Shown: one piece after another, positions 35,963 through 61,836 of the stretch
How the letters are laid out: each line of letters opens with the position of its first letter
Position numbering within the stretch: position 1 is the first letter of the stretch
Assembly: GCA_044892505.1 (NCBI GenBank)
Contig: CM097883.1
Coordinates: 391,406,001 to 391,470,000 of the forward strand
Source: Schmidtea nova
Lineage: Eukaryota
DNA length: 64,000 nucleotides
Direction: 5' to 3'
Position numbers and translations under genes: made by a program
Notes under the pieces: generated by a model
What the model was told of the DNA's origin: nothing
Databases searched by the model: none
What the model saw: the letters and a program-made list of their open reading frames with translations, nothing else

Positions 35963-36033
<71 letters not shown>

Positions 36034-43902: not shown

Positions 43903-44001
43903 TGATACTTTTGATAGTCTATATTTGTTTTTAATAAAAACTCATTGTATATTTTAAAATTTGTTTTTATAGTTGATATTCTTAAGTTTTAAATTATATG
44001 T

Positions 44002-44708
44002 AGTAGGCAGTTATGTGGAGCATGAGTCATCGCAGAACAAAGGAAATGACGTCACACAATGGTCATACCTTCGAAGGTGTATGGTGTGTGCTCAACCTTC
44101 AAGGGGTCAAAATCCTTCAAATATTTTTAAACATTACAAGTTATATATCAAACAAAAGGTAATTGAGATTTGAGTATGATGGTCAACCCTCGAAGGTGGG
44201 TGGTCGACCCTTGAAGGGTCCAAGACTCAAAATTTTAAAAACTATATAATATATGTATCAAACAAAAGGTAATTGAAGGGTGCACACAATGGTCATACCC
44301 TTAAAGGGTCCAAGGTTCAAATTTTTAAAACTATATAATATGTATATCAAACAAAAGGTAATTGTGAGATGAGTGTGTGTGTTACAATTTGCCAGACGAG
44401 TGTGTGTTACAAATCCTTATTCAAACCTTATAATATACATATCATTCGAAAGGTAATTATGGTGTGTGTGTGTGTGTTATAATTTTTTCTATTTCCTACC
44501 TGAATTACAACAAAGACATTGCAATCCATGTGCAACGAAACAAAGACTAATAAAACTTGTAATAATAAATTTTGCACACGTATCTTAGTGTTTAATAAGG
44601 ATCACAGTACGCATTGAACGCGCGTGGAACGCGCGTTCTTCTCCTCTTGTTGTTTAAGACAAATAACAGTACGCATTGAACGCGCGTGGAACGCGCGTTC
44701 TTCTTCTC
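44002..44708 (+). repeat. Left TIR (sequenced part; continues into gap 44709-45275)
   Basis: Reverse complement of 59483-60587 except for a 396-bp deletion and one fewer GT unit. The sequenced lengths (707 and 1105 bp) differ by exactly 398. Confidence 0.95.
44605..44708 (+). repeat. 62-bp tandem repeat containing a CpG-rich hairpin, running into the gap
   Basis: Units start at 44605 and 44667. Each has GAACGCGCGT-GGA-ACGCGCGTTC. Mirrored at 59483-59586. Confidence 0.9.
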
Positions 44709-45377
44709 NNNNNNNNNNNNNNNNNNNNNNNNNNNNNNNNNNNNNNNNNNNNNNNNNNNNNNNNNNNNNNNNNNNNNNNNNNNNNNNNNNNNNNNNNNNN
44801 NNNNNNNNNNNNNNNNNNNNNNNNNNNNNNNNNNNNNNNNNNNNNNNNNNNNNNNNNNNNNNNNNNNNNNNNNNNNNNNNNNNNNNNNNNNNNNNNNNNN
44901 NNNNNNNNNNNNNNNNNNNNNNNNNNNNNNNNNNNNNNNNNNNNNNNNNNNNNNNNNNNNNNNNNNNNNNNNNNNNNNNNNNNNNNNNNNNNNNNNNNNN
45001 NNNNNNNNNNNNNNNNNNNNNNNNNNNNNNNNNNNNNNNNNNNNNNNNNNNNNNNNNNNNNNNNNNNNNNNNNNNNNNNNNNNNNNNNNNNNNNNNNNNN
45101 NNNNNNNNNNNNNNNNNNNNNNNNNNNNNNNNNNNNNNNNNNNNNNNNNNNNNNNNNNNNNNNNNNNNNNNNNNNNNNNNNNNNNNNNNNNNNNNNNNNN
45201 NNNNNNNNNNNNNNNNNNNNNNNNNNNNNNNNNNNNNNNNNNNNNNNNNNNNNNNNNNNNNNNNNNNNNNNNNNNCAGCTTATAAAAACTTACAAAAACT
45301 AATACAAAAATTTTACAAATAAAAGCAATTAAAAAACGATAACAAATAAATTAAGAAATCTATTGAATGAAAATAAA

Positions 45378-48300
45378 TCAACCAAAATAATTATGATCAT
45401 TGTTAAAATCATCAATAAAATCATCTGGATTGTCTGGATCATTTCCTTCATTATTTTGATTCAAAACTGGAGAGATTGGTTGATTGAAAGGTTCTGGATC
45501 ATCATTTGGTTCATCAATAAAGGTATCACCCACCCGAAAATTGCCATAGGCTAAACTTTTATTTTTTGTTACCCAAAACCTTTTGTCGTCCATATTTGTC
45601 AGTGCTTTTTTGTTGTTCTTAATGCTATATAGCTGATGATTTTTGCTGCATATTCTAAATTGCGGTACCTTGTAAATCCTATTGTTCACATAACAATCAA
45701 GATACGACTCATGACTCAGTCCAGTATCTTTCAAATCAACTCCCTTAGCCTTCATGTTACTCGCATCACCCAACAAACTGTAACATTTAGGCCTCAGGAA
45801 CACCCACTCCTTATATAATAGTCCTTTACTCTCGTCTTTGAACTTGCCAATGACAGAGTCAAGGTTCCTATTATATAACGGATGATTAGGGTCATAATTG
45901 GATGTGTCAAGCAACTGGTCTCTAATCATAGCAGCTAAAAGAATGTCAAGACTACAATTTTTAATCTCCAAAAAGAAGGAATCAGTGTCTCCAGCAACTA
46001 TATTAATCTGACAGTTCAATTCATTACGATATTTTTGTAACTCATTGTACTGCAACTCGTACATTCTCAGTTTGGATAAATCTAGTACAGTTTGCCCAAT
46101 GTAACTAGGTCTATCCAAACACACTGATTCCTTCCTAAGCAAAACCGAAATCAAATCGTCGTCTATCCTTGTGGTTTTCCTAAATGCCGGTTTTGAGGCA
46201 TATGTGATTAGTTTTTGTGCTGAATTGCAGAGTCGCAGATTAATTCGTTTTTTCAAGTTCTCAACAGTTTTTCCATACAAACTGTTGTTGAGCAACTTGT
46301 AGTAATTTTTGTCTAATTTACTTGTCGATGTTGCTCTTAACTGTGTGTTTGTGTCAATGTAATTTTTAAATACATAGCTTTGGTCGTATTTAATTGCCCT
46401 ATGTATTTTTGTTACAAGTGCACCTAAATTAATAAAAATCTGTAGAAGCCTCCAATGAAGAACGTAGTTCTTTTTGGAGTTGTGCGTTAGCAACAGCTTC
46501 TTAACTTTGGAAAAAGGAGCGCACATCTTTTCAGCGGCAATTGGAAAATCATCCAATTTATCGTGAATAGATGTCGGTATTTCTAAATCTACTTCTATGG
46601 TATAACCATAGCTAAGCAAACTTAGATCTACCGTAGCGCATTCAATTAATAAATTAGTTAATAAATTATCATCGGTCACCCATTGAAAATTACCCTCGGG
46701 TAGCTTTTGTGATAAAGCCCATCCATACAGGTTGTTGATATCGATATACAACAACTCTGTATCCGCACTACTTTTAACATAATGTTTGTTTACAAAAGTA
46801 AGCCCCCCACGAATTCCCCCTTCAAAGAAATTGTACATTTCCATGTCGGTCAATAATGTTATCGGTTTCTCAAGAGTCATCAAAGCCGAACTCCAACTCA
46901 TACCGGGAATCCCCAAGAAATTAAGGGGCTCAAGTTTGTTATGGGCAATGCTCTTAGCCCGAAATTGCTGAAAAAAGTCAGCCAGTAAAAACACATCAAG
47001 TTTTAGATACACCATCATGTAATCCAAAAGGCAAGTACATGATGTTTCTCGCCATATTACTTTAGCCAACTCATATTCCTCTGCGTCAACACCTTTCCAA
47101 ATTGGTGGTAATTCTGATGTTGACCTTAAAACATCTAAAGAGGTCGCAACATCGTAAGGAAAAATTCCCTTGCTGTTAATTATAGTTCCCCTGAACTCTG
47201 AAGATGTTAATGGCAAAGATGTTAGTGTTGCTACAGCACCTTTTAATGATTCAGACACAAATTGACAAGAGTCAATAAATTTCACAGACAAAGAATCAAT
47301 ATTAGCAAAAAGTGAAAGAAACTTCTCGCTAGTAATTGGAATGCAGCTTATATTCCAAGATGTATACCGAGATAAGCCAAATTTGAGGATATGATGGAGA
47401 TCATACCCTCTCAAATTATGAAAGACAACAGGCAAAGTGTGTCTTATTTGCCTGCTAAGATTACACTTTTTGCAAGCTGCACCAATAAATTGACCTGAAA
47501 AATGGTCGTGATCTCTAACTGGTTCTACTAACAGTTTCTTGCACAAATGACAGTTTGTGCTGTTATTAAAAGTTATTTGATCATCGCCAGTGAAGATCAT
47601 TTTCTTATTGTAATTTTTATAAAAATAGGGACTTACAATATATTTACTTATATCTTCAATTTCATGAAGAAATTGATCTACACAATCAAGCCCTAAAAAT
47701 GATTTGTAGATTTTTTCACCGGTGAAGTTATTAATTAGTAATAAGCCAGCTGCAATCGGTAAATGTTTTTGATAATATTTGGTGTCCTTCGGTAAAATTG
47801 CCTCAAAATCGGCAAAAATGACAAAGGGAGGAGTGACAGTTTTCTTCCAATCAGTAAATTCAAGCAAAGGGTTTTTAGGCAAAGTGTACAAAGTTGTACC
47901 CAATTGATTATTTTCACAAAGACCACGATGACGATTAAAACAATCATCAGTTCGGAAACCGTTAAGACACCGAGGACACCATTGACAGCAAATACGGACA
48001 GAAGTTATTGATGCATTTCTGCAATTTAAGAATCGATTTAAATCAGTTATGGCGGTGTAATGAAAATTTTTATTATTATCTAAAAGCAGTAAGTTAATTG
48101 GTGTTCCTCCTACAACCTTACTTTTATAAATTATATCTATAAAGGGATGTTTCATTATAGAGCTGGCATTACTTATATCAATCAACGCAGTTTCATCATA
48201 CGACAAAACATTAATTGCATACCCTGGATTTTGTCGTTCAAACTTAGAAATATTTCCAAGTTTCATGGGCATATCAGCAGCATCATACTTTAGTTGTGAA

Positions 48301-49304
48301 AGGTTATAAGAGGAAGGAAGATGTCTCAACTCAGGAATAATACTATCATATTTTAAAATAGCCAAAATGCTATAAAGAAAGCAAAACTCATCCTGATTTT
48401 CAATATTAACAATGCAGTATTTACGAAGTAAAGTTTTAGGAGTTGCGAGAAATCGACGACCACTTAAGCGACTAATTTCACTATATTTTGTTAATAAAAA
48501 ACTTATATATTCAATTTTATGTATCGTCCAATTTGAACCCTTTTCGTTAATTTTAATAATTTTTTCGTTTAAAAGAGCAATACCTTCATCAATGAAGGTA
48601 TCACTCATAGTTCTGGCAGAATTTGAGATTACGAAAGATTGGAGTTCGTCATCTTTCTCAAATTCTACCTTTATACAAAACTGAATTTTTACAGAACTCA
48701 TCTGCGAAACTGTTAAATTTAATTTATTAATTAAAATATCTGGAACAACAACAATTTTTAAGTTTAAGGATGATACATCCATTTTTAAAATTATGTGGGA
48801 ATCGTTTAAGTCGGAAATAACCTCGACATTTCCGCATCCTACTTGATTAATTAAATTATTATTAATTATTTGATCATCATCATCACTGATTTCGATGATT
48901 TCATCGTCACTTATTTCAATTATTTGATATTTTTGAGGAATTGAATCCTCATTAAAACTTTTTCTTTTATTATTATTTAAATTATTAATTAAAATATTTA
49001 GGTTATTATTTAATTGTTTATTAATATTAATTAATTCATTTATTTGATTGTTATCAAGCTCTTTGTTAATATTTAGTACTTGGTCTGGTATTTGTTGATT
49101 AATTATTGTTTGTTGGTTAAGTGTTTGTTGGTTATGTGTTGAATATAATTTATTAAAAAGTGATTTTTTAGATGTCATATACTGACTCAAATGAATACAG
49201 TGTTTTTCATAAAATTGTATATATGGTATGTTATCAATAATATTACAATTAGGGCATAAAAGGTGGGTGATACCGTTATACTTATAAGAGTAATACTTTT
49301 CCAT
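45378..49304 (-). CDS. pPolB: Protein-primed family B DNA polymerase (1308 aa) with N-terminal TP/vOTU-like region and an EndoVII/HNH-like insertion
   Basis: Exonuclease motifs IFADFEA and FHNLRGYD. Polymerase motifs YIDINNLYG, KLLNNSLYGK and AGDTDS. CHLC...VRDHDHFSG...ACKKCN insertion. QDEFCFLYSI...FHYTAI is a candidate Cys-His protease dyad. Confidence 0.97.
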   Translation of the reverse strand: MEKYYSYKYNGITHLLCPNCNIIDNIPYIQFYEKHCIHLSQYMTSKKSLFNKLYSTHNQQTLNQQTIINQQIPDQVLNINKELDNNQINELININKQLNNNLNILINNLNNNKRKSFNEDSIPQKYQIIEISDDEIIEISDDDDQIINNNLINQVGCGNVEVISDLNDSHIILKMDVSSLNLKIVVVPDILINKLNLTVSQMSSVKIQFCIKVEFEKDDELQSFVISNSARTMSDTFIDEGIALLNEKIIKINEKGSNWTIHKIEYISFLLTKYSEISRLSGRRFLATPKTLLRKYCIVNIENQDEFCFLYSILAILKYDSIIPELRHLPSSYNLSQLKYDAADMPMKLGNISKFERQNPGYAINVLSYDETALIDISNASSIMKHPFIDIIYKSKVVGGTPINLLLLDNNKNFHYTAITDLNRFLNCRNASITSVRICCQWCPRCLNGFRTDDCFNRHRGLCENNQLGTTLYTLPKNPLLEFTDWKKTVTPPFVIFADFEAILPKDTKYYQKHLPIAAGLLLINNFTGEKIYKSFLGLDCVDQFLHEIEDISKYIVSPYFYKNYNKKMIFTGDDQITFNNSTNCHLCKKLLVEPVRDHDHFSGQFIGAACKKCNLSRQIRHTLPVVFHNLRGYDLHHILKFGLSRYTSWNISCIPITSEKFLSLFANIDSLSVKFIDSCQFVSESLKGAVATLTSLPLTSSEFRGTIINSKGIFPYDVATSLDVLRSTSELPPIWKGVDAEEYELAKVIWRETSCTCLLDYMMVYLKLDVFLLADFFQQFRAKSIAHNKLEPLNFLGIPGMSWSSALMTLEKPITLLTDMEMYNFFEGGIRGGLTFVNKHYVKSSADTELLYIDINNLYGWALSQKLPEGNFQWVTDDNLLTNLLIECATVDLSLLSYGYTIEVDLEIPTSIHDKLDDFPIAAEKMCAPFSKVKKLLLTHNSKKNYVLHWRLLQIFINLGALVTKIHRAIKYDQSYVFKNYIDTNTQLRATSTSKLDKNYYKLLNNSLYGKTVENLKKRINLRLCNSAQKLITYASKPAFRKTTRIDDDLISVLLRKESVCLDRPSYIGQTVLDLSKLRMYELQYNELQKYRNELNCQINIVAGDTDSFFLEIKNCSLDILLAAMIRDQLLDTSNYDPNHPLYNRNLDSVIGKFKDESKGLLYKEWVFLRPKCYSLLGDASNMKAKGVDLKDTGLSHESYLDCYVNNRIYKVPQFRICSKNHQLYSIKNNKKALTNMDDKRFWVTKNKSLAYGNFRVGDTFIDEPNDDPEPFNQPISPVLNQNNEGNDPDNPDDFIDDFNNDHNYFG

Positions 49305-49981
49305 TATGACGTGGCAGTTATTATGGGAAGTACTGTTGCAGTATTGCGGGTATAAATTGCCTATATAACAGGAAATAAAATATTAAATTCAAGTATAAAA
49401 AAAAAAAAAAAAAAAAAAACATTTTATTTACCTTTAACATAATACGTAATGATTTACAAAAACTATTACGTATTATATTAAGTTTAAATAAAAAATATTT
49501 AAAATTTTTAAAATAACTTTTGATAATATTGTGACTGTAAATTATTAAAAATAATATGTTATCATAAAATTATCGTTCATAAAAAGGTTTCTTAATCATT
49601 AATCATTTATTTTTTCATATATATAAATCATTTTTTATAAATAAATCATTTTATTTTCATAAATAAATAAAATAAATAATTTCTTCTTCATAAATAAATG
49701 GTCATAAATAAATCATTTTCATAAAAATATATAAATCATTTCATCTTTAATAAATTCATAAATTCATAAATGTTTAAAATATTATTATTGTTTTATAATA
49801 ATATTATCATTTCTAATATTATTATTATAAAATAATAAAATATTTACTTTTACTTCTTAAAATTCATAACGCATTTAATTTTCATAAAATACATAAAATT
49901 TTAAAAATATTATTATTATTTTTTAATAATATTATCATTTCTAATATTATAAATTAATAAAATATTTAATAATATATTTTC

Positions 49982-50419
49982 TTAGATATAATATAAAAAA
50001 TCATCAAAATATTTACATTTTTTCAATCCAATCGTTAATCCCGCAGCATTAAAATTTGATCCATTGCAAGTAGAACCAGCTGCATTCGGGGCATAAAAAC
50101 TAGAACCAGCAGTAATTTGAGCATCAGTTTGGCCGTAATTTATTACATTATTAATTTCTAAAGATTTTTGTCAATTAAAATTAACAATAATAAAAGTAAA
50201 TATACCATTGACTCTATTTCCGATGACTCCAGTTCCAATGACTCCAGTCCCAGTGGCAGATCCGTTGTTATTTAAGATGTTGTTCGCGATATTGTTCGCT
50301 ATATTAACTTCTAATAATATTAAAAATAAATAAGTAAATAAATAAAAAGTAAATTTACCATTGACTCCAGCTCCGTATGATTTTCGAGCAACTCGTCCTT
50401 GATTCATTAAATTATTCAT
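49982..50419 (-). CDS. Predicted 3-exon orphan protein (113 aa), N/G-rich, with an N-terminal ARKS motif
   Basis: Exons 50359-50419, 50206-50310 and 49982-50157, separated by two 48-nt GT-AG introns. Splicing removes the in-frame TGA at 50171 and gives MNNLMNQGRVARKSYGAGVNEVNIANN...GLKKCKYFDDFLYYI. Confidence 0.65.
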
Positions 50420-50479
50420 TTTTGTTTAAAAGACTTGATAATAGATTTTGTGATTAAAAGTGACGAAATAATACAAGTA

Positions 50480-50645
50480 TAGACTATATAAAGCAGATAA
50501 TTTCAAGTTTTATTAACCATCCAATCAGAATCGAGATAGGATAGGGAAATAAATGCACACATACTGCATGTTTGTTTATGTCACGATAGTTGTTATGTGA
50601 CTACATAAAGACATGTAAGTTCACGACCCCATGTGTCTTTATGTC
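50480..50645 (-). promoter_or_regulatory. Putative Pol II promoter of the spliced orphan
   Basis: TATATA at 50485-50490, CCAATCAGAA at 50521 and AAAGACATG at 50607. Confidence 0.45.
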
Positions 50646-50779
50646 GTGACTTTATCGACAAAGGCTTTGTTGATGTCATCATGCTTTATGATATACATGT
50701 GACGAATAATTTAATAATATTTATAAAATAATAATAATAATTACATTTATAAAATAAAGAGATGATAATAATATTTATA

Positions 50780-50780
<1 letters not shown>

Positions 50781-50864
<84 letters not shown>
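50781..50864. repeat. (AAT)n microsatellite inside the Polinton
   Basis: Pure AAT run of more than 25 units downstream of the nuclease-like ORF. Confidence 0.95.
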
Positions 50865-50869
<5 letters not shown>

Positions 50870-50911
50870 CATTAATACACATTATTAAAATTTATTAAAA
50901 TAACAATACAT

Positions 50912-51328
50912 TTATTGCTTTAAATAATCAATAACTGCACTCAAACATCCTTTATAGGCACACATACTATGATCCCTATATGGACATGATATATTATCTG
51001 GAACATCTTCAATTTCTTTAAAATTATATTTAATTAATCTCAATTTCGGGAAATATTTCTTCAAGACTTGGAGTTTATCAGCATCAGTGACATAGAAAAT
51101 AGCACTAGTATCTTCAATATCATTCATAATACATGTTGGGCAAAAGTAATCTTGTCCTTCATACCATTCTAATCGATCGGGAATTCCAATTCCAGCCCAG
51201 AACGGTAAATCATTGTATATATAATACTTTGGTTTAAAAATATTATTAACATTCATAATACATAATTCTTTAATAATTAATCCTCCCATATCATTATAAC
51301 CGTAAATATCAATAAAATAACAAGTCAT
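50912..51328 (-). CDS. DEDD/DnaQ-fold, Maelstrom-like putative nuclease (138 aa)
   Basis: N-terminal YFIDIYGY...IIKEL resembles ExoI with DxE changed to DxY. C-terminal CPYRDHSMCA resembles a C-H-C zinc site. Assigned by motif recall only. Confidence 0.5.
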   Translation of the reverse strand: MTCYFIDIYGYNDMGGLIIKELCIMNVNNIFKPKYYIYNDLPFWAGIGIPDRLEWYEGQDYFCPTCIMNDIEDTSAIFYVTDADKLQVLKKYFPKLRLIKYNFKEIEDVPDNISCPYRDHSMCAYKGCLSAVIDYLKQ

Positions 51329-51361
51329 TTTTTCACAACAAAATTTATTAAACTAAATTGT

Positions 51362-51738
51362 TTATAACATAGATTTTAGCCATGCAAGGCAATGTTGACC
51401 ACAAGTGGTCGAGAATGGATGTTGATACCGAATTCTATTATATACAATCGGTTTACCCATAGTCTGCAATTTTCGAACTAGTAAATTGGGATAATAATAT
51501 CCAAATGGATCAAATACATGTATTCGATCCGGTTTCACGTAAACAGCAATCCAATGCTCACCGCCCAAAGTAGATGTCTGAGTATTTACAATGATGGCCT
51601 GATTAATATCTAAATACGGAATTTTATCTAGTGGATAAACTCCAATAAATTGATTTCCCAATAGTTTTTTACCAAGTCTATATACCTGAACAGAACTAAT
51701 TTAATTAAGTATTTTAGTAATTAAAAAACTTACTCCAT
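51362..51738 (-). CDS. PRO: Adenain-like cysteine maturation protease (112 aa after splicing)
   Basis: GEHWIAV, FDPFG and CGQHC supply the catalytic H, D and C. The start requires ATG GA at 51738-51734 and a 38-nt GTAAGT...TTAG intron (51696-51733), giving MDSVQVYRLGKKLLGNQFIGVYPLD. Confidence 0.9.
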
Positions 51739-51786
51739 GACAATTATTTCTATCTTTTGGTTCATTTATACCTGCACAAACTAATA

Positions 51787-51859
51787 ATGTTTGAGCTCTG
51801 CTCAAAACATTAATTTTTGAGCTCTGCTCAAACTAATAATGTTTAAGCTTTGCTTAAAC
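51787..51859. other. Three tandem stem-loops overlapping and following the MCP stop codon
   Basis: TTTGAGC-TCT-GCTCAAA twice (51790-51806, 51816-51832) and GTTTAAGC-TTT-GCTTAAAC (51841-51859). Confidence 0.7.
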
Positions 51860-53074
51860 CAGTACAGTTCGATTCGCAGTAATTTGTACTTCATTTTCAA
51901 ACAATCCATATATTATTACATGAACCGGTTCGTCAATGGCTTTACCAAATTTGATATCTAATCGTAAATTCCCATTTTGCGGGATTTGACTTTGATTCAA
52001 ATCAAAATCAGGAGCAAGAACAAAAGTAAAGAATGGATAACTTGATTTAAATTCATCGAGACTTATACCACAATTCAAGTTTTTATCTAAATATCCTAAA
52101 TTTCTAACAAGACTTTGCATATATGTGGCACTAAAATTATCATTTTCAAAATCTTGAGTATAAGTTTCTCGATAATCGGTATTTTTCGATAATGATAATG
52201 AAGTTACATTAAAGTGTTTGAATGTAGATGAAGATTCAGCATAAGACCCGTTATATTGATTTTCTGTTTGAAAAGCTACAAGAATGAAATTAGGCATTCT
52301 TCTATCTCCAAATATTTGCTCCTTGTAAAATGATGATGCACCTTTACCAATTGCAAACGATACGATTTCTTTGGATTTTATCGGATAAATTGCATGTTTG
52401 CTATTTAAACCAATTTGATGACCGGCCAAAACTGAAGATTCACACCGAACTCTTCGAACCATTAATTTAGCGTCTACTAATTGGAGTATTGGTTTCCCAG
52501 TTGCTGATTTCAATGATAATGCAGAATCAGATCGCTTCAATCTAATATGTACATTAACTCCGGGAAGTAAGTATTTAGGTTGATCCATAAAATCGAGTTG
52601 TAATGATGAACACATGTTAAAAAGTTTCGATCCCTTGATCCACTTTTTTCTATCGTCACTTGCCGCATATCCCATTGGAGTAAGACAAGTTTCTTTTGAA
52701 TCATTCGTATAATTTAAAATAGTTTCGATTATTGCCTTGTGTGCATAAGTATTGTTTCCACCCTCGATTTTTATATTATTAAATCCAAGAATTGCATCTT
52801 TGAAAAGTGTATGAAACAGGTAATTATTAGGTACTACATCACTCGCATCAACTAAGTTCTTTTTATCTTTATCTACAACTTTGACCGTAACGGATAATAA
52901 CGTATCGTTCAAATCCAAATATTCGGTTTGTGAACCATTAATGTAAAATTCCACATCATTTCTACTATCTGTAATAGAATTCATTGGAAACACATCTTCA
53001 AACACCCCATATTCAATAACTGCTTGGGGGCTTGGTCGATCAAAAAGACATAATTCAGATTTACCGCAAATCAT
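51854..53074 (-). CDS. MCP: Double jelly-roll major capsid protein (406 aa)
   Basis: ELCLFD...P....VEFYI.GS..EYLDLNDTLL at the N-terminus and GNLRLDIKF...V.IIYG at the C-terminus are typical of Polinton MCP. Size and position fit. Confidence 0.9.
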   Translation of the reverse strand: MICGKSELCLFDRPSPQAVIEYGVFEDVFPMNSITDSRNDVEFYINGSQTEYLDLNDTLLSVTVKVVDKDKKNLVDASDVVPNNYLFHTLFKDAILGFNNIKIEGGNNTYAHKAIIETILNYTNDSKETCLTPMGYAASDDRKKWIKGSKLFNMCSSLQLDFMDQPKYLLPGVNVHIRLKRSDSALSLKSATGKPILQLVDAKLMVRRVRCESSVLAGHQIGLNSKHAIYPIKSKEIVSFAIGKGASSFYKEQIFGDRRMPNFILVAFQTENQYNGSYAESSSTFKHFNVTSLSLSKNTDYRETYTQDFENDNFSATYMQSLVRNLGYLDKNLNCGISLDEFKSSYPFFTFVLAPDFDLNQSQIPQNGNLRLDIKFGKAIDEPVHVIIYGLFENEVQITANRTVLV

Positions 53075-53451
53075 TCTTCAAATATAGTTCCATGACCTTT
53101 CATTCGTTTGTTTATACGTTTTCGTTTACGTCTTGGTCCTACTGGTACAGGTTCCGGTTCATTTTTTGTAAACATATTTGTAATTGAAGGAATCATTTGT
53201 GTTACAGCAGGTATAGCTTTATTAACTGCGGCCAAAGCATTTGTTTTCAATGACGGTAATAGTTTATTATCTTTCATGATTACATCCTTGGCAGTATTGA
53301 ATCCAAAACTACCTAGTCGCTTAAGTATTGGAAGTGCAAATCTTCCAATAGTTTTTAACCAACCTGATCCATACTGTTTACCTACAAAATACGGTAATTC
53401 GCCACCGGTTTGGCTATTACTGTACAATGAAATTATATCGGGATTACTCAT
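53071..53451 (-). CDS. Small virion protein with an amphipathic helix and basic tail (pVI/PZ-like, 126 aa)
   Basis: QTGG and QYGSG candidate protease sites, helix GWLKTIGRFALPILKRLG, and NLS-like PRRKRKRINKRMKG. Its stop overlaps the MCP start codon (ATGA). Confidence 0.7.
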   Translation of the reverse strand: MSNPDIISLYSNSQTGGELPYFVGKQYGSGWLKTIGRFALPILKRLGSFGFNTAKDVIMKDNKLLPSLKTNALAAVNKAIPAVTQMIPSITNMFTKNEPEPVPVGPRRKRKRINKRMKGHGTIFEE

Positions 53452-54490
53452 TTAATCTACGAAAATGTAATGTCAAATGCGTTTTTGAATCTTTTGGAAA
53501 ATTTATTAATTTACCACTATCGTCACGTATATTTATTTCTATATTGTTTATACATGAGGTAGAAATAGGTAAGTACATTGGATTATCCATTACTATTTGT
53601 ACAACTTCATCCTGTTCATATTTTTCGATCCATACCGATTTCAGTAGAGGAACCAGAGTATCACCGACAATTATTGGTTCAATAATGTTACTGTAAATGA
53701 ACATTTGTTGATGATGAACAAGTATTTTAGGTTTCACAGTCCCATCGACAAGGTTTCGGTCTCTATACGTTTGTTTAGCTAATCCTAAAGTATTGACCAA
53801 GTTTTTATCAAATGTAACTTCACTAATATTATCATTGAGACAGAATTGGAACCATTTATTAATCTCTAGAGTTTTAAAGATATGGGAACAATTGAATGAT
53901 AAATATTTAGATAAATCTTCCAGTTGCATTATATACAAATCATTTGCAAATGTAAATGTATCTTCAATTTCTGCATCATATGATATTGTCACTGTAAAAT
54001 CTTCTTTCAAATAACTATTCGGTTCAAATAATATGAACTTTAATTGATATTCTTTTAGTGTACTTACAATTTTAAGTTGATCACTTCCCATTCGCTTGGC
54101 TTCTTCAATATTTTTAAATGTAATTGTATATGGAGTAAAATCACAATTAATATTTAAGCAACCATTGCTGAAATACATACTACAATGAACATTCAAATTT
54201 TGGTTAGGAATAGTATATATCCTTTCAAAATTGTTGATGATGAATTGACCACTGCATGTTCTATTTTCAATTCTTTTGTAATCAATCTTACATTGACTAT
54301 AAAATGGAAATGTATTGTACACAAACGTGAAATCTTGTAATGCAACTTCCCAATTACCATCTAAATAAATTGGATTTTGAAGATTGACCATGAATTTACT
54401 GGCTTGATTGTCTGGATGTATTAGGGGACAGCTATTACTTGGTAATATAGTATAGAAATTCACTTTACTAGGTCTTTTGACGATATCCAT
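53444..54490 (-). CDS. mCP: Minor capsid protein (penton, single jelly-roll, 348 aa)
   Basis: FYTILPSNS...F.VNL..PI.L.GNWEVAL and IYSNII...VGD..VPLL...YLPI...IEINIRD...LHFRR. Confidence 0.88.
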   Translation of the reverse strand: MDIVKRPSKVNFYTILPSNSCPLIHPDNQASKFMVNLQNPIYLDGNWEVALQDFTFVYNTFPFYSQCKIDYKRIENRTCSGQFIINNFERIYTIPNQNLNVHCSMYFSNGCLNINCDFTPYTITFKNIEEAKRMGSDQLKIVSTLKEYQLKFILFEPNSYLKEDFTVTISYDAEIEDTFTFANDLYIMQLEDLSKYLSFNCSHIFKTLEINKWFQFCLNDNISEVTFDKNLVNTLGLAKQTYRDRNLVDGTVKPKILVHHQQMFIYSNIIEPIIVGDTLVPLLKSVWIEKYEQDEVVQIVMDNPMYLPISTSCINNIEINIRDDSGKLINFPKDSKTHLTLHFRRLNE

Positions 54491-55507
54491 GATGGTTCTT
54501 TATATCCATGCCACTTTACATAGTATTGTTTATCCTTACCTACCACTTTAGTTTTCAATATTTTTTGAATTCTAAATATTGTGGGAGGGGGAATAACTTG
54601 TAATTCTTGTTCATAGAATTTCCCACTGACTATATTGTTATCAGAGTCAGAAATAGTATACATGACAGGATTCTGGACTGTGTTGACTTTCGATATTTTA
54701 AATACCTCATCACTCCAATTACTATCAAAATTTTTAATGAATGGCGATGCACTAATTTTACTAATTCGAACATGATCACCTATTTTATATTTTGGTTTCT
54801 TTATTTTTGTATCATTCAAAATATTTTCAGTATCAACTACTTCAGCAGGTTTCTTTCCATTTATACCTCGATGAGCAGAATGATTATAACTATGAATCAT
54901 TTGTGGTAAAACATTAATCCATGTTTTATTCCCTTGATGCACAAAATATTTTTTGAGACGATCTCGTAATGTACGATTAAATCTTTCAACATGAGCGGCT
55001 TTGAATTGAGAGAATACTGAGTAATGATTGATTCCCTTTATAATTTCTTTGACTTTGCTATTGTAAAATTCCTTACCTAGATAAATAATTATCATTTTAT
55101 AAAATATTTATTAGCTTACCTAAATCAGTTTGTAAATTAGTTGGACGTCCACTTTTGAACATTGTTTTGATTGCGATTGCCATATCATTAGCAGATTTAG
55201 ATTTTACCGGAATAGCTCGAGCGAAACGACTGTAAACATCAATACATGTTAAAATATACTTGTATCCCTTGTTAATTTTTGAATACGGAATCATTTCCAT
55301 CAAATCCATTTGCCACAAATCATTAATTCTATATGTTTTATATGCTCGAGTCGGAAACCGTTTCAGCATCGGTTTGTTTAGACTGTATGCAAGTTGCCCC
55401 GATAACCAACTTTGAGTCTGTTTTTTCGAATTCGATACATTTTTGCTTAGCTTTTCGACTCCACCGAAACCTGCTTCGTGTTTTGGGTTGGTCCAAATCT
55501 TCTCCAT
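54460..55507 (-). CDS. INT: Retroviral-like DDE integrase with a C-terminal chromodomain (334 aa, two exons)
   Basis: WQMD (D), QTDLG|KEF (D) and HVERFNRTL (E). Chromodomain IQKIL...YYVKWHGY..PSW. A 43-nt GTAAG...CTAG intron (55077-55119) joins the two ORFs in frame, 1005 nt in total. Confidence 0.93.
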
Positions 55508-55562
55508 TACAACAAGAAGATTTAAAGTTTAAATTAAGATTAGGCAATGATTGTCCCATTGT

Positions 55563-56105
55563 TTATGACTGTTTTCCTAATAAACCAGCACCTCCTAATA
55601 GTGATAATGCTAATGGTAACAATGCTGCAATAAACCCTCCTTGTTGTTTATATATTATTTTACGCATTAATTTTCTATTTTTGGTTTTTACAAGTGATAA
55701 CAATGGTTTCTTGTGTTTGTTCAAAACTCTTCTATTAGATTCACTTATATTGATTTTACCTCTAACAACTTTAATTAAAATCATTAGTAAATCGTCAATA
55801 ACGTAATTAGGAAACGATTGTAAAATACTCATTCTTCTAATACTAGGGGCTTTAAGTAATGCATTGAAAAATGGGAAACTACGATGATGTAGTTGTTTTG
55901 GATTTGGTTTGTAAGTATTTTGAATACGATTACTTTTTGGGATATTATCAATAAGTAATTTTTTAGATGGTGTATAACTAGTTTTTGAAACTGGTTTCTT
56001 TGTTTTCTTTGTAAATACTTTCTTTGAAACTAATTTCTTTCCCGGTTTCTTCATTTTTCTAGCCTTTATCAAGCGCTCAAACTTTACTCTAGATTTCATT
56101 AACAT
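55563..56105 (-). CDS. Lys/Arg-rich core protein with an adenovirus pX-like hydrophobic tail (180 aa)
   Basis: Highly basic N-terminus. C-terminal QQGG|FIAALLPLALSLLGG resembles adenoviral pX GGFLPALIP. A homologue is present in relic B. Confidence 0.7.
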   Translation of the reverse strand: MLMKSRVKFERLIKARKMKKPGKKLVSKKVFTKKTKKPVSKTSYTPSKKLLIDNIPKSNRIQNTYKPNPKQLHHRSFPFFNALLKAPSIRRMSILQSFPNYVIDDLLMILIKVVRGKINISESNRRVLNKHKKPLLSLVKTKNRKLMRKIIYKQQGGFIAALLPLALSLLGGAGLLGKQS

Positions 56106-56125
56106 GATTGATAATATACATCTAG

Positions 56126-56749
56126 TTAACTTTGTTTATAAACCATGGCTCCTTCCTTGTTGAAAATATCTGTTCTAACTCTTAAATCATCACTACATTG
56201 TTGCGTGAAATCAAGAAAAAGATATCCATGAGGGGCTTTTGTGGCATCTTGGAATGCTTCAATCAAGAAATTACGATTAGAAGGGTATGCTTGTCTTGCA
56301 AGAAAATCAATAACTGTTGCGTCTCTAGGATTTTTGAAAACAGCAAGATATTGAACATTTAAATTACGAGTTCGATGACTGCCGCCCTGATGAAATAAAT
56401 TCTGAGTTATAAAAATGACTGTAACACCCTTGTGTCTAGCGATTTTTGTAAATAAATTATTAAAATCCTTTTCTTTATTTGCTTCTTGGTACAAATCATC
56501 AATAATAATCACATCCCCTTCTCTTAATCTTGATGACCAATTTTTATCGAAACCTTTTATTATAGTCATTTTTATTTTACAAAATTGATCTTGAGTCATT
56601 CCATGTTCATCATCCGCACCCCTATGCCAATAAATTTTATTAAACTTTGATTTGAATAATTTTGATTGTAATAATTTACAAACAAATAAAGTTTTTCCAC
56701 TCCCGCTCGGTCCAACAATTTGAAACACTGCATCATTTCTTAATTCCAT
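56126..56749 (-). CDS. ATPase: A32/FtsK-HerA-family genome packaging ATPase (207 aa)
   Basis: Walker A GPSGSGKT, Walker B IIIDD and the RH...FITQ motif. Confidence 0.95.
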   Translation of the reverse strand: MELRNDAVFQIVGPSGSGKTLFVCKLLQSKLFKSKFNKIYWHRGADDEHGMTQDQFCKIKMTIIKGFDKNWSSRLREGDVIIIDDLYQEANKEKDFNNLFTKIARHKGVTVIFITQNLFHQGGSHRTRNLNVQYLAVFKNPRDATVIDFLARQAYPSNRNFLIEAFQDATKAPHGYLFLDFTQQCSDDLRVRTDIFNKEGAMVYKQS

Positions 56750-56846
56750 TTTTCAAATTTTATTAATTTATTATTATTGTTTATATTTGTTTAAAATAAT
56801 AGTTGTTTTTATTATTGTCATTTTTAAAAAAAAAAAAATTTCAGTA

Positions 56847-57314
56847 ATGATTAGCAACATAAATTATAAGGGTAAGACTGATGTATCTCACATGAATTTT
56901 CCAAATGGGAAACCACAGCAAATTGTTGATAGATGTGGTAAATATCCGATAATATATTTTAAGACCGGGAGATATAGAATTATGGGATGTAAGGAATTTA
57001 TTAGTGATGAAAAAGTAAAGTTTTACAATTTAACAATACAATCAATCACTGTTACGACAGACTTGGGATTTAATTGTAATTTAAATGATTTGGCTAAATT
57101 AATAGAATGTGTTTACGAACCAGAAATATTTCCAGCTTTGAGATATACAAAATATAACCCCATGTGCGTTAATATATTTGCAAGCGGTAAAGTAGTTATA
57201 TTAGGTTTAAAAAACAAAGACTATTTAAATATAGTTGATATTATTATTAATGATGTAAAATCAATTATTGAAGATAAAGCCTTTGCCGATTTCATATTAT
57301 CGTGTGACTCATGA
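56847..57314 (+). CDS. TATA-binding-protein-like protein (155 aa from ATG 56847)
   Basis: Two-repeat TBP pattern: ISNI...IYFKTGRYRIMGCK and IQSI...YEPEIFPAL.Y...NIFASGKVVILGLK. The canonical TBP repeat 2 reads IQNMV...YEPELFPGLIY...LIFVSGKVVLTGAK. Confidence 0.85.
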   Translation: MISNINYKGKTDVSHMNFPNGKPQQIVDRCGKYPIIYFKTGRYRIMGCKEFISDEKVKFYNLTIQSITVTTDLGFNCNLNDLAKLIECVYEPEIFPALRYTKYNPMCVNIFASGKVVILGLKNKDYLNIVDIIINDVKSIIEDKAFADFILSCDS

Positions 57315-57339
57315 TTGCAATAAATCTACAATATTAATG

Positions 57340-57460
57340 CACGATTCTGATTGGTTCAGTGTGTATATCGATAATAAAGACATGTCATGCATGCTCGAAT
57401 TTGATTGGTTCAGTGTGTAATATTTTGTACATTCCTTGTGTTTCTATCGTATATATACAA
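57340..57460 (+). promoter_or_regulatory. Putative Pol II promoter
   Basis: GATTGGTTCAGTGTGTA twice (57349, 57403), AAAGACATG at 57376 and TATATATA at 57450, upstream of ATG 57498. Confidence 0.5.
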
Positions 57461-57497
57461 TTAACATTTTGCTATCATTTATATTCACAATCACAAA

Positions 57498-58136
57498 ATG
57501 CCAGAGATAATGAAATATGGTAAATTTTAAAGTTTACTATTTTTTCATTTTTATAATTTTTTCATTTTAGAGAAATTAATTTCCGTACTTTACGGTAAAC
57601 TTGAGGAAATCTATCCGATGCTGATGCCGAAGCTGACCTATACAGCACCGGAGCTCTTTCCCTACAAAATTCAATGCCTGACTGGGATCGATATTCATCA
57701 GGTCTTACTGGATCATCTGGCTAATCGGGACAGTGAAATGCCATATATGGCGGAGCACATCTTGTGCGCATACCAATGCGGCCATTGTATGGACCGTATA
57801 CAGAAGTATCGGGTCTGGATGTTACGAAACGCCCTCCACCAATTTGAAATGGATTCCAAGAAATTGGAAAAAATTGACGAGGAGGACGAGATTCCAAAGC
57901 AATGGACAAATTCAACACCCGAAGCGTCGGATGATGAAAAATCGCCAGATTGGGATAAATCGCATGATTGCGATAATTCACCTGATCATTTAGATGAATT
58001 GCCTGAAATACAATTATCTTTTGGTTGTTCGACTGCTATGGATCAATGCGACGAAAATAAGTGTATTGAATCGCCTCAATCGCCTGATTGCGATCAATGC
58101 CATCGCAAGCTTTCAAATATAGAGATTGCAGAATAA
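57498..58136 (+). CDS. Conserved Polinton orphan protein (about 195 aa, two exons) with Cys/His clusters and an acidic SP-rich tail
   Basis: Exon 57498-57519 and a 51-nt GT-AG intron (57520-57570) join in frame to the 172-aa ORF. A homologue with an AG acceptor at a similar position is present in relic B. Confidence 0.7.
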
Positions 58137-58559
58137 ACATTATTAATGTTATATGTTTTTATTTGTGTATTTTCTTTTTATGTAGACACATTTTATGTAG
58201 TGACATTTTATGTATTCACATTTTATTATTTAATAAATCTTTTATCATTGTTATTTTAGTTTTTTCTGTTTCAGTTTTTTATTTTGTTAATGAGTTATTT
58301 ATTAAGTTTTTAAATAATTTTAAAATAATTTTTATTTAGTTTTTTGAAATGAAATAGGTTTACTAATAATTTATATTAAGTTTAAAATAAGTTTTATTTA
58401 AATGAATTATGTTTAATAGTAATTTTTATAAATAAAGACAATTTCAATAATAAATACACATGCATGAATTAATTACAACAAAGTCATGTATTCCAAAATC
58501 AGTTTCAACAAAATAAACATACATGTATAATTAACACACGACAGACATGTAGCAAATAC

Positions 58560-58705
58560 GTGTGCAACAAAGACATGCATGCAACAAGTACTAATGTATG
58601 CAACAAAGACATGCATGCATGCATGTAACAAAGACTTGCATAACATGTGCAGTTAGAATGCGTCATTTTGATTGGACAAAGGCATTACTCATCACTATAA
58701 ATACA
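58560..58705 (+). promoter_or_regulatory. Putative Pol II promoter
   Basis: AAAGAC(A/T)TG three times (58569, 58605, 58630), TGATTGG at 58669 and TATAAATA at 58696, upstream of ATG 58740. Confidence 0.55.
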
Positions 58706-58739
58706 AAGACATTTTTCAGATGTTGTCACAATTTCAAAA

Positions 58740-59156
58740 ATGCCAGCACGTAAATCAACTTATGACATCAGTGAAGAAAGAAAAATCAATAATGAAGTGA
58801 AACCAGTACAAATGTATTACGATTACAAAATTTATTTCCTGGTTCAAGAAATACCATTTCGTTTGTCGTATCCAGTGAAATTAACAAAGTCATTGTATGA
58901 CAATTTAGCTGCAAATCTAAATAAAGAAGATGTTGTTGCACTAAATAAAGTTTTATTCAAAATCAATAACAATTTAAGTTGCAAGGAAACTATATGGATT
59001 AACAACCGGAAAACTCGTTTCCATGATGCTTTCCAATCTATCGAATACAAGGATCAAGAAAATTGGTTTATTACCATAATCATTCAGGGATATAAAATCG
59101 ATACAAAAGATGTTATAACTCCAATTTGGAGAATTGACAGTGCACGATATGCATAA
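58740..59156 (+). CDS. Orphan protein (138 aa) beginning MPARKST; C-terminus possibly OB-fold/SSB-like
   Basis: Clean ORF with a good upstream promoter. ITIIIQGYKI...ITPIWRI is a beta-rich pattern that only loosely recalls viral SSBs. Confidence 0.7.
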   Translation: MPARKSTYDISEERKINNEVKPVQMYYDYKIYFLVQEIPFRLSYPVKLTKSLYDNLAANLNKEDVVALNKVLFKINNNLSCKETIWINNRKTRFHDAFQSIEYKDQENWFITIIIQGYKIDTKDVITPIWRIDSARYA

Positions 59157-59482
59157 CTGTTATTTTATAAATGTTATATTCAATAAAATTTAGTAATTTC
59201 AATTTTAGTTTTTGATTGTTTGAATTTTTATAAGNNNNNNNNNNNNNNNNNNNNNNNNNNNNNNNNNNNNNNNNNNNNNNNNNNNNNNNNNNNNNNNNNN
59301 NNNNNNNNNNNNNNNNNNNNNNNNNNNNNNNNNNNNNNNNNNNNNNNNNNNNNNNNNNNNNNNNNNNNNNNNNNNNNNNNNNNNNNNNNNNNNNNNNNNN
59401 NNNNNNNNNNNNNNNNNNNNNNNNNNNNNNNNNNNNNNNNNNNNNNNNNNNNNNNNNNNNNNNNNNNNNNNNNNNNNNNNNN

Positions 59483-60587
59483 GAGAAGAAGAACGCGCGT
59501 TCCACGCGCGTTCAATGCGTACTGTTATTTGTCTTAAACAACAAGAGGAGAAGAACGCGCGTTCCACGCGCGTTCAATGCGTACTGTGATCCTTATTAAA
59601 CACTAAGATACGTGTGCAAAATTTATTATTACAAGTTTTATTAGTCTTTGTTTCGTTGCACATGGATTGCAATGTCTTTGTTGTAATTCAGGTAGGAAAT
59701 AGAAAAAATTATAACACACACACACACACACCATAATTACCTTTCGAATGATATGTATATTATAAGGTTTGAATAAGGATTTGTAACACACACTCGTCTG
59801 GCAAATTGTAACACACACACTCATCTCACAATTACCTTTTGTTTGATATACATATTATATAGTTTTAAAAATTTGAACCTTGGACCCTTTAAGGGTATGA
59901 CCATTGTGTGCACCCTTCAATTACCTTTTGTTTGATACATATATTATATAGTTTTTAAAATTTTGAGTCTTGGACCCTTCAAGGGTCGACCACCCACCTT
60001 CGAGGGTTGACCATCATACTCAAATCTCAATTACCTTTTGTTTGATATATAACTTGTAATGTTTAAAAATATTTGAAGGATTTTGACCCCTTGAAGGTTG
60101 AGCACACACCATACACCTTCGAAGGTATGACCATTGTGTGCACATCGGTATTACCTTTCGAATGATGTATTACACACAAGGTTTGAAAAATCTGAAGGTT
60201 TTTGACCCTTTGAAGGTTAAGGACACACCATAGACCCTCGAGGGTATGACCATTGTGTGCACCTCTCAAAGACCTTTCGAATGATACCCTTGTTTGAAGG
60301 TTTGACCTTATTTGACCTTTGGAAATTCAAATTCAAAATTTGAATTTGAAATGAGTCATCGATGACGTCATAAAATTCAAATTTGAAATGAGTCATCGAT
60401 GACGTCATCGATGAGCCATGCCGATGAGTCATCGATGAGTCATGCCGATGAGTCATCGATGAGTCATCGCGATGAGTCATCGATGACGTCATCGATGAGT
60501 CATAAAAAAAAATTTCCTAACCCCCCCGGGGGGGTGACGTCATTTCCTTTGTTCTGCGATGACTCATGCTCCACATAACTGCCTACT
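59483..60587 (-). repeat. Right TIR (sequenced part; continues into gap 59235-59482)
   Basis: Contains the 62-bp units, degenerate repeats of about 90-120 bp, the AP-1/CRE array and the terminus. Confidence 0.95.
60352..60566. promoter_or_regulatory. Array of 9 AP-1 (TGAG/CTCA) and 4 CRE (TGACGTCA) consensus sites with a C7G7 palindrome
   Basis: TGAGTCA at 60352, 60389, 60425, 60436, 60449, 60460, 60473 and 60496; TGACTCA at 60560; TGACGTCA at 60363, 60400, 60484 and 60535; CCCCCCCGGGGGGG at 60521-60534. Confidence 0.75.
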
Positions 60588-61836
60588 ATATGTGGATATT
60601 TTGTGATACAAAAATAAGAATCGAGATTATCCAAGAAAACTTTGATATCATTGAGAGACCTAAAGATTGTCTTTCCATCAGATCCAATGCGTATCGTTCT
60701 TTGAGAAAAATAGAGCATTGTCACATTGGACAAGTTTCCTACCAATAAATCCGCAACCTGTCTCGTTTGACTGATATTGAATACGAACATATCATACACA
60801 AGAATAAGTCGATTTGCTTGCTATATTTAATTTGTTTAACTATTCAGAATGATTGGCTTTATCAGTTATATTACCAGATAAATATTCAAAAGAATCGAAT
60901 TTAAATTTTTAAAATTTTTTTGAAACCAAATTCTTTTAAAATCTACACCAATTTGAACTTTACTCGAATTTGAAAAAAACAAATAATTCAAAAAAACAAA
61001 TCTCCTAATTCCTCGCAATTCCAATTTATTTTTCTTCCACTTTGTCTATCACATAATAAATCTCTTAAACTATTTTATTCCAATTTTACAAATTTCAATT
61101 AATTCTCAAAAATTAAAAAATTCGATACGATCAGTGCTTTTTTTGTAGAAAAAAAGTGTTGGAACTCATCGTTATTTGTCTTTATATGTCAAAATATGAA
61201 ATTAGCTACCAAATTATAAAATAAATTTTATAGGACCCAAACTATAAAACTATAAACTCACTTTTTTTTCGTGTTTTCCAATTTTCGCTAGACAAATCAT
61301 CTCGACTCGTTTCCTTGCTACTAGTGTCTACATCTGAACATCTTCCCCGAAGTAATCACAAATCAACATACCTTAAAGGATCGAAGAGTGTGAGTGGTGG
61401 TCCCGCTAATCTGATAAATAACAGCGATGAAACTGTTTTGGTTATCAATGAAGCTCTTGCTGGAGTGATGATCAGATTCATCCGTAAAAATCCCACTATT
61501 AGACACATAGTGCAGCCAGGCTTCCTTTTTCGAAAGCAGAGCCATTTGTTTTGGCACAAAAAGTTAAAAATGTAAAGTGTGTAAAATGTAAAACCACATG
61601 AGATTCTTTTTAATAATCACAGGTTTTTGAGAATGAAAGGTCTTATTTAACCGTGACAGATTCGTATTGTTTGAAATAAGATAAANNNNNNNNNNNNNNN
61701 NNNNNNNNNNNNNNNNNNNNNNNNNNNNNNNNNNNNNNNNNNNNNNNNNNNNNNNNNNNNNNNNNNNNNNNNNNNNNNNNNNNNNNNNNNNNNNNNNNNN
61801 NNNNNNNNNNNNNNNNNNNNNNNNNNNNNNNNNNNN

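Follow-up and report, generated by a model that had tools for sequence, protein, structure and literature searches.

Short spliceosomal introns predicted in core genes of a high-copy Polinton of Schmidtea nova

The element and its split genes

The stretch of DNA analysed here (the window) comprises 64,000 nucleotides (nt) of Schmidtea nova contig CM097883.1 (assembly GCA_044892505.1, forward-strand positions 391,406,001 to 391,470,000). It contains a Polinton/Maverick element. In this element the integrase and protease genes, an accessory gene and probably also the polymerase gene are split by GT-AG introns, and these are very probably removed constitutively by the host spliceosome. The element spans 44002..60587 (16,586 nt), has AG...CT termini as read in the sequence and is flanked by a perfect 6-bp target-site duplication (TSD) at 43996-44001 and 60588-60593. 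Its inverted arms match at 100% between 44462-44956 and 59235-59729, and at 99%, partly over N, between 44053-44488 and 59705-60140. An integrase, a packaging ATPase, an adenovirus-type protease and a double jelly-roll (DJR) capsid look-alike mark it as a Polinton/Maverick. Intronless core genes are a described trait of intact vertebrate and nematode Mavericks, with no standing as a formal criterion, and the window element departs from this trait.

The integrase gene lies on the minus strand and consists of exon 1 with two catalytic Asp residues (55120..55507; PF00665, E 2.6e-9), a 43-nt phase-1 intron with GT..AG ends kept across copies (55077..55119), and exon 2 with the catalytic Glu region and a chromodomain (54460..55076; PF00385 below cut-off, 555 homologues). 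On the same strand, the protease gene comprises a 5-nt coding part of exon 1 that includes the ATG (51734..51738), a 38-nt phase-2 intron, GT..AG and likewise kept across copies (51696..51733), and exon 2 encoding an adenovirus-type cysteine protease (51362..51695; PF00770, E 1.3e-6). The accessory gene starting at 57498 is on the plus strand, with a 22-nt exon 1 (57498..57519), a 51-nt phase-1 GT..AG intron (57520..57570) and an exon 2 that had no family match in the library search (57571..58136). Upstream of the polymerase frame on the minus strand lie two more 48-nt GT..AG introns, both in phase 1 (50311..50358 and 50158..50205). All five introns had been proposed by an earlier first-pass annotation of this DNA and were found with the lengths and GT..AG ends it had given, the two 48-nt introns falling outside the coordinates of its finding. 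The integrase, protease and 57498 introns are 86-88% A+T.

The genome measures 1.25 Gb, with an integrase match every 120 kb or so. For comparison, 20 copies were fetched that had been selected for differing integrase introns within the initial 10 Mb of a single contig, together with 11 additional stretches around intron-free integrase matches. Integrase, capsid and protease occur together in 17 of the 20 chosen copies; extrapolated from these, and provided that most copies are close to complete, the element would make up roughly one tenth of the genome. Since the TSD is perfect and 40/40 scored matches are 99-100% identical, recent activity is likely, and the window Polinton appears to be a high-copy element active in recent times.

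The integrase intron

Read without splicing, the integrase is divided between two frames and broken 2 residues past the second catalytic Asp, which bears out the earlier claim that a sensible protein requires removal of the insert. A search pattern that fixed the two exon ends as well as GT and AG gave 10,504 genomic matches (reversed control, 0), with intron lengths of 40-48 nt among the matches listed. The first-pass annotation had named an assembly indel as a possible source of the break. This is excluded, because all 40 scored genomic matches extend over the full 1081 nt of the integrase region at 99-100%; the exact 43-mer of the intron itself occurs at 723 genomic places.

Twelve unbroken integrase copies contained 12 different introns, which covered all three length classes modulo 3, had an in-frame stop in 11 cases and showed a median interior identity of 0.71. 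The exons evolve otherwise. Median ratios of nonsynonymous to synonymous substitution (dN/dS), taken for each exon from 12 copies, were 0.110 over 58 pairs for exon 1 and 0.115 over 55 pairs for exon 2, for pairs with unsaturated dS above 0.15 and at a median dS of 0.9-1.1.

As candidate retrocopies of the window subfamily, five intron-free integrase matches (L043-L047) were considered and rejected: they are frameshifted copies whose protein is 57-77% identical to exon 2. An 8-nt repeat at both ends of the integrase intron was likewise rejected as a TSD. It is taken to be a proto-splice site, as it is lost in most subfamilies and the same bases stand at the empty site of intron-free relatives.

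The protease intron and the 57498 gene

The protease had been described as lacking a start unless spliced, and this holds: in the frame without exon 1 there is no Met ahead of the catalytic motifs, the first being residue 79 of 110, after the HW (47) and FD (61) motifs. The protease pattern with GT..AG yielded 9,280 genomic matches against 0 for the reversed control. In fetched copies, whose choice had made no use of this junction, the ATG-GT..AG layout was intact in 17/19, both misses being frameshifted copies. Protease introns measure 37-40 nt; all 12 distinct ones contain a stop, their interior identity is about 0.71-0.72, and the protease dN/dS is 0.164. The 57498 intron, whose junction was equally unused in choosing copies, was present in 16 of 18, always at the same place and in phase 1, with lengths of 45-54 nt.

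Genes of this build are prone to misreading by open reading frame (ORF) callers, as the first-pass annotation had expected; indeed, the database proteins P0121 and P0128 appear to start inside an intron of the same kind.

Proposed host splicing of the element

The short introns of the core genes have the traits of the U2 type: GT donors mostly GTAAG-like, AG acceptors mostly TAG, flanks collinear with unsplit homologues, a length free of the frame and an interior without conservation. Because both gene halves are under selection while the insert changes frame freely, splicing is hard to avoid as an explanation, and the view that these are functional spliceosomal introns is supported by the sequence comparison. 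Frameshifting or read-through was considered instead and rejected, since neither can cover all three length classes. According to the proposed mechanism, host RNA polymerase II would transcribe the integrated copy, and constitutive splicing would then restore the integrase frame between the second and third catalytic residues, supply the protease with a start codon and, over a long A+T-rich intron, join the polymerase to an Asn-rich leader that changes fast and is made of short phase-1 exons. Most likely the element, long resident in the nucleus and passed on mainly by vertical descent, tolerates the introns as passengers, and they persist since the cost of splicing is small.

Contigs from four sequencing runs cover genes and spacers alike and look like DNA, so they have no bearing on splicing; no joint at the six introns was among the 15 listed of 383 joints.

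Another explanation would be that the inserts do break the genes, so that intron-bearing copies are non-autonomous and depend on integrase and protease provided in trans by an intron-free family. A family with an intron-free integrase does exist in this genome (177 matches, among them L051/L052). However, both integrase exons of the intron-bearing copies are under purifying selection across a dS of about 1, the L051 family retains the protease intron and shows no polymerase in the 30 kb fetched, and no intron-free protease leading into a protease frame was found among the 22 of 45 pattern matches checked (control count 28). Hence, supply in trans is extremely improbable. The stretch L051/L052 (G000:C1:17244000-17264000) also carries its ATPase-to-protease block as an inverted duplication, and many of the 177 matches form inverted pairs about 7.2 kb apart.

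The first-pass annotation had further suggested that retention of the introns could gate integration and maturation. In this case the introns would also act as switches, retained by tissue or stage, at the instance of the host or the element, to limit integration and capsid maturation in the manner of the third intron (IVS3) of the Drosophila P element. Retention would destroy the product for 11/12 integrase and 12/12 protease introns, and the enzymes carry introns while the capsid and ATPase genes do not. Precedents comprise retention of P-element IVS3 through Piwi-interacting RNAs (piRNAs) and splicing factors (PMC9762592), as well as Polintons that are targeted by piRNA and desilenced in differentiation in one invertebrate (PMC8532177). 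However, stop codons are expected by chance in A+T-rich introns, donors are mostly GTAAG-type consensus and acceptors mostly TAG, and the interior is unconserved (identity 0.71-0.72). Gating is thus not supported, and a role as switches is unlikely.

Co-adaptation with the host had been proposed as well, from the resemblance in size to short introns of 41, 47 and 66 nt in a host SLC15 gene. The 66-nt intron was recovered (41433-41498), whereas those of 41 and 47 nt did not pass our filter. Among 26 rough host myosin intron candidates, a list that includes false rows, 15 fall within 43-58 nt. The sizes therefore overlap, as had been claimed, but size alone does not show co-adaptation, since the protease introns (37-40 nt) lie at or below this cluster and metagenome relatives (L099 and L101) have a 39-nt intron.

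A probable spliced leader of the polymerase gene

The first-pass annotation had treated an 'ARKS orphan' as a separate gene. It probably makes up exons 1 to 3 of the polymerase gene, joined to the main frame over a further intron at 49361..50016, and this missed intron of 656 nt (GTAAAT..ATATAG, 11% G+C), predicted from acceptor conservation across copies, is, together with the probable spliced 5' end of the polymerase gene, what is new here. The donor/acceptor chain runs on the minus strand from exon 1 with the ATG (50359..50419, 61 nt; the earlier orphan) through exon 2 (50206..50310, 105 nt) to exon 3 (50017..50157, 141 nt). The three exons are without stops and all in phase 1, and the donor that closes exon 3 is followed by 656 nt up to the acceptor. 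The main frame occupies 45378..49360, with frame and motifs read from the sequence. This 1334-codon frame shows family B polymerase motifs and is taken to be the polymerase on that basis; Pfam, PHROGs and PDB gave no polymerase match, the library match being a weak one to endonuclease VII alone.

In 16/16 fetched copies the polymerase frame is preceded by an AG acceptor at an identical offset, while AG occurs at 27 of 1728 positions in the upstream flank. In 10/16 copies an in-phase donor preceded by at least 37 open codons is found 333-1144 nt upstream across very A+T-rich DNA, and the bases of the split codon are compatible with cysteine in all copies having such a donor. A complete chain from ATG to donor was obtained for the window and 6/16 copies. 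The N-terminal Cys/His cluster aligns to the unsplit start of the polymerase of the metagenome relative L101 (E 7e-6), where the first Cys falls approximately at the position of the split codon. The 'ARKS' frame is probably this spliced leader.

It could instead be a small gene of its own ending soon after exon 3, with the polymerase starting at its own first Met. Indeed, exon 3 read on unspliced reaches a stop after 11 codons, the main frame has a Met at residue 19, and leader sequences diverge strongly among subfamilies. Against this stand the acceptor at one offset in all 16 copies and the in-phase donor in 10 of them, the loss of conserved Cys and His residues that a start at the own Met would entail, and the read-through tail of exon 3, which is not conserved. 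A separate gene is accordingly rather improbable. Two further ideas were rejected: a histone-tail reading of 'ARKS', a word that is not conserved in the other subfamilies shown, and a hidden intron in the polymerase linker, where the frame is open throughout in 7/9 copies.

The chains found have 3 to 5 leader exons, and near-identical repeated exon-intron units are present in copy L077; leader exons may thus multiply through duplication of such units. In one subfamily the long polymerase intron contains an antisense gene in 3/3 copies examined (L090:6040-6318, L057 and L073). This gene has 45-49-nt GT..AG candidates of its own and is a distant homologue of the gene at 58740-59156 (29% over 91 aa, E 3e-8).

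History of the introns

The metagenome relatives mostly lack the integrase intron: 36 of 38 loci are without an insert at this site, and the motif is unbroken in 112 of 120 proteins. A quick tree was built from 88 rows of integrase exon 2, frameshifted copies being omitted. The 21 rows with the intron formed one group in it, with a Shimodaira-Hasegawa-like approximate likelihood ratio test (SH-aLRT) value of 92, below the tool's star. This group had the intron-free family of the same genome as its sister (90) and was nested among intron-free relatives. A scan of IMG/VR for relatives of the integrase confirmed none. The metagenome comparison and the tree suggest a single gain of the integrase intron in a lineage that expanded within this genome. 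The protease intron would be older and common to metagenome relatives and the family with the intron-free integrase: that family (L051) retains it, and L099 and L101, the two close relatives among seven protease matches listed, have an intron of 39 nt at this codon.

Mobile introner elements that entered the Polinton after integration might also have produced such introns, and introners are known from Maverick-Polinton-like proviruses of dinoflagellates (PMC11957031). Introners are recognised by near-identical copies present as introns at many unrelated sites. For the integrase 43-mer, by contrast, 30/30 fetched loci of the 723 exact matches were the integrase site, so that present mobility is not indicated, and each intron has been passed down with the element across subfamilies. 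Introner insertion after integration is very unlikely, although the introns may derive from introners in an ancient past.

Several points weigh against inherited, constitutively spliced introns. Splicing is deduced from DNA, and no spliced read or transcript was seen. GT and AG were fixed in the integrase search pattern, so their conservation there does not count as independent evidence, and common ancestry likewise makes the dN/dS pairs non-independent. One of the integrase introns, 42 nt long, has no stop and keeps the frame, and 177 pattern matches in the same genome belong to a family whose integrase does without an intron. The integrase tree is a quick one, and the SH-aLRT value of 92 for the intron-bearing group lies below the tool's star. 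Finally, 6/16 polymerase copies have no convincing donor (two rearranged, two with 9 and 13 open codons and two with none), and a strict filter yields no full leader chain in 10/16.

Comparison with known elements and implications

The earlier premise that Polinton core genes are generally intronless agrees with what is stated for vertebrate and nematode Mavericks (PMC8097293; 10.1101/2022.07.12.499685). Intact vertebrate Mavericks were reported to be without introns, in agreement with Kapitonov and Jurka 2006, and Genewise 'introns' were treated as insertions (PMC8097293); nematode core genes are intronless, with introns in cargo genes only (10.1101/2022.07.12.499685). The window element shares with these Mavericks (PMC8097293 for vertebrates) the terminal inverted repeats, 6-bp TSD, a putative protein-primed family B polymerase (pPolB), DDE integrase, ATPase, adenovirus-type protease, capsid genes and a size of 15-17 kb. 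Unlike them, it has a split integrase, protease and probably polymerase under selection, as well as a TBP-like gene. The dinoflagellate proviruses also carry spliceosomal-type introns within full-length elements (PMC11957031), but these are recent mobile insertions, mostly post-integration, whereas the introns described here occupy fixed single sites, are inherited and give no sign of present mobility. In Ginger1 (PMC2836005), the Gypsy-like integrase gene of a DNA element is similarly cut by GT-AG introns, a likeness that leaves intron positions aside; Ginger1 is however a cut-and-paste transposon without polymerase or capsid. Adenoviruses, which are related to Polintons, produce polymerase and terminal protein from spliced E2B transcripts (PMC9499273), with no claim of intron homology; they differ in being non-integrating and in using long-range alternative splicing, and they have no counterpart to introns of 38-51 nt inside an integrase. 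The P element resembles the window element in having an intron in the transposition enzyme of a DNA element, IVS3, whose retention is demonstrably regulated (PMC9762592).

Group I introns have been described in cryptophyte Polinton-like viruses (PMC12220804), and Maverick expansions in flatworm genomes in a report whose available text does not mention introns in Mavericks (10.64898/2025.12.11.693146). In the accessible literature on Polinton introns or splicing, no account was found of selected spliceosomal introns in core genes of animal Polintons; subscription papers, Repbase entries and supplements lay outside this scope and may hold such annotations. The available parts of 10.1101/2023.08.22.554363, PMC8502044, PMC6431247, 10.64898/2026.07.28.741278, PMC5803895 and PMC11296320 contained nothing on introns of Polinton core genes.

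More tentatively, and with somewhat more doubt than confidence, these elements may constitute a capsid-coding Polinton clade that depends fully on the spliceosome, having acquired its introns stepwise (protease, then integrase), with a polymerase N-terminus built from duplicating phase-1 modules and a slot for an antisense gene, and yet numbering about ten thousand copies. If this were true, spliceosome-dependent Polintons would be scored as dead fossils by criteria for intact elements, counts of active animal Polintons may be too low, and splicing may be a step at which such elements come under host control. Indeed, elements have been counted as intact by intronless ORFs, intron-like breaks being taken as decay (PMC8097293), and surveys that define intactness in this way would therefore discard the window type, although few repeats in this genome have been as successful. 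The intron-bearing genes imply a need for a nucleus and for a host that splices introns of 37-48 nt, which could limit horizontal spread. Besides, the element offers a system for studying how new spliceosomal introns arise, as its copies number in the thousands and the gain of an intron in one of its genes is datable.

Other genes and neighbouring features

A search for upstream introns in the ATPase, capsid, TBP-like, 50912 and 58740 genes found none. On the minus strand lie a conserved gene for 138 aa without family (50912..51328; frame and comparison of copies), the intronless major capsid gene (51854..53074), which had no Pfam match and whose Atlas look-alikes bear PF21738 DJR-like with a very high score, a family found on 15-30% of members, and a conserved 126-aa gene (53071..53451; frame and comparison of copies), presumably PZ-like by its position. 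The next gene (53444..54490) is likely a minor capsid gene from its position and size, with no family match. In metagenome relatives (L094-L096, L101) the putative minor capsid gene occurs in two tandem copies. A gene for a basic 180-aa protein (55563..56105), with neither a family match in the Pfam search nor a visible intron, and the intronless packaging ATPase gene (56126..56749; Pox_A32 among the matches) follow. On the plus strand, the TBP-like gene (56847..57314; PF00352, E 5e-15) is retained in most fetched copies and also present in metagenome relatives L097, L100 and L101; the gene at 58740..59156 encodes 138 aa and was identified as the distant homologue described above by sequence comparison.

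The 8-mer ATAAACAA occurs 10 times within window positions 49014-56777, on the minus strand only (mean 1.7 and maximum 7 in 200 shuffles). Eight of the 10 occurrences lie about 25-150 nt ahead of a start codon, and the word turns up again along the genes of L097, L099 and L101, which makes it a candidate shared promoter word. It resembles a forkhead site. Ahead of the polymerase leader and of the genes at 57498 and 58740, ATTGG (CCAAT-box) words are followed by TATA-like words (50521, 57349, 57403 and 58670).

On the host side, the window contains two tandem transporter-like genes, seen as pieces at 12650-12950, 21579-21890, 41177-41620 and 43588-43899 with a weak PTR2 match (E 4e-4); the element begins about 100 nt past the stop of the second. 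Decayed fragments of other Polinton copies (TBP-like, integrase) lie between host exons at 17732-17953, 38044-38346 and 39330-39944, and a Gypsy-like gag-pol fragment is found within the first host gene (13345-15990, minus strand). Several copies of a small palindromic repeat about 200 nt long, at 10948-11160, 36022-36201 and 8945-9160, belong to one family.

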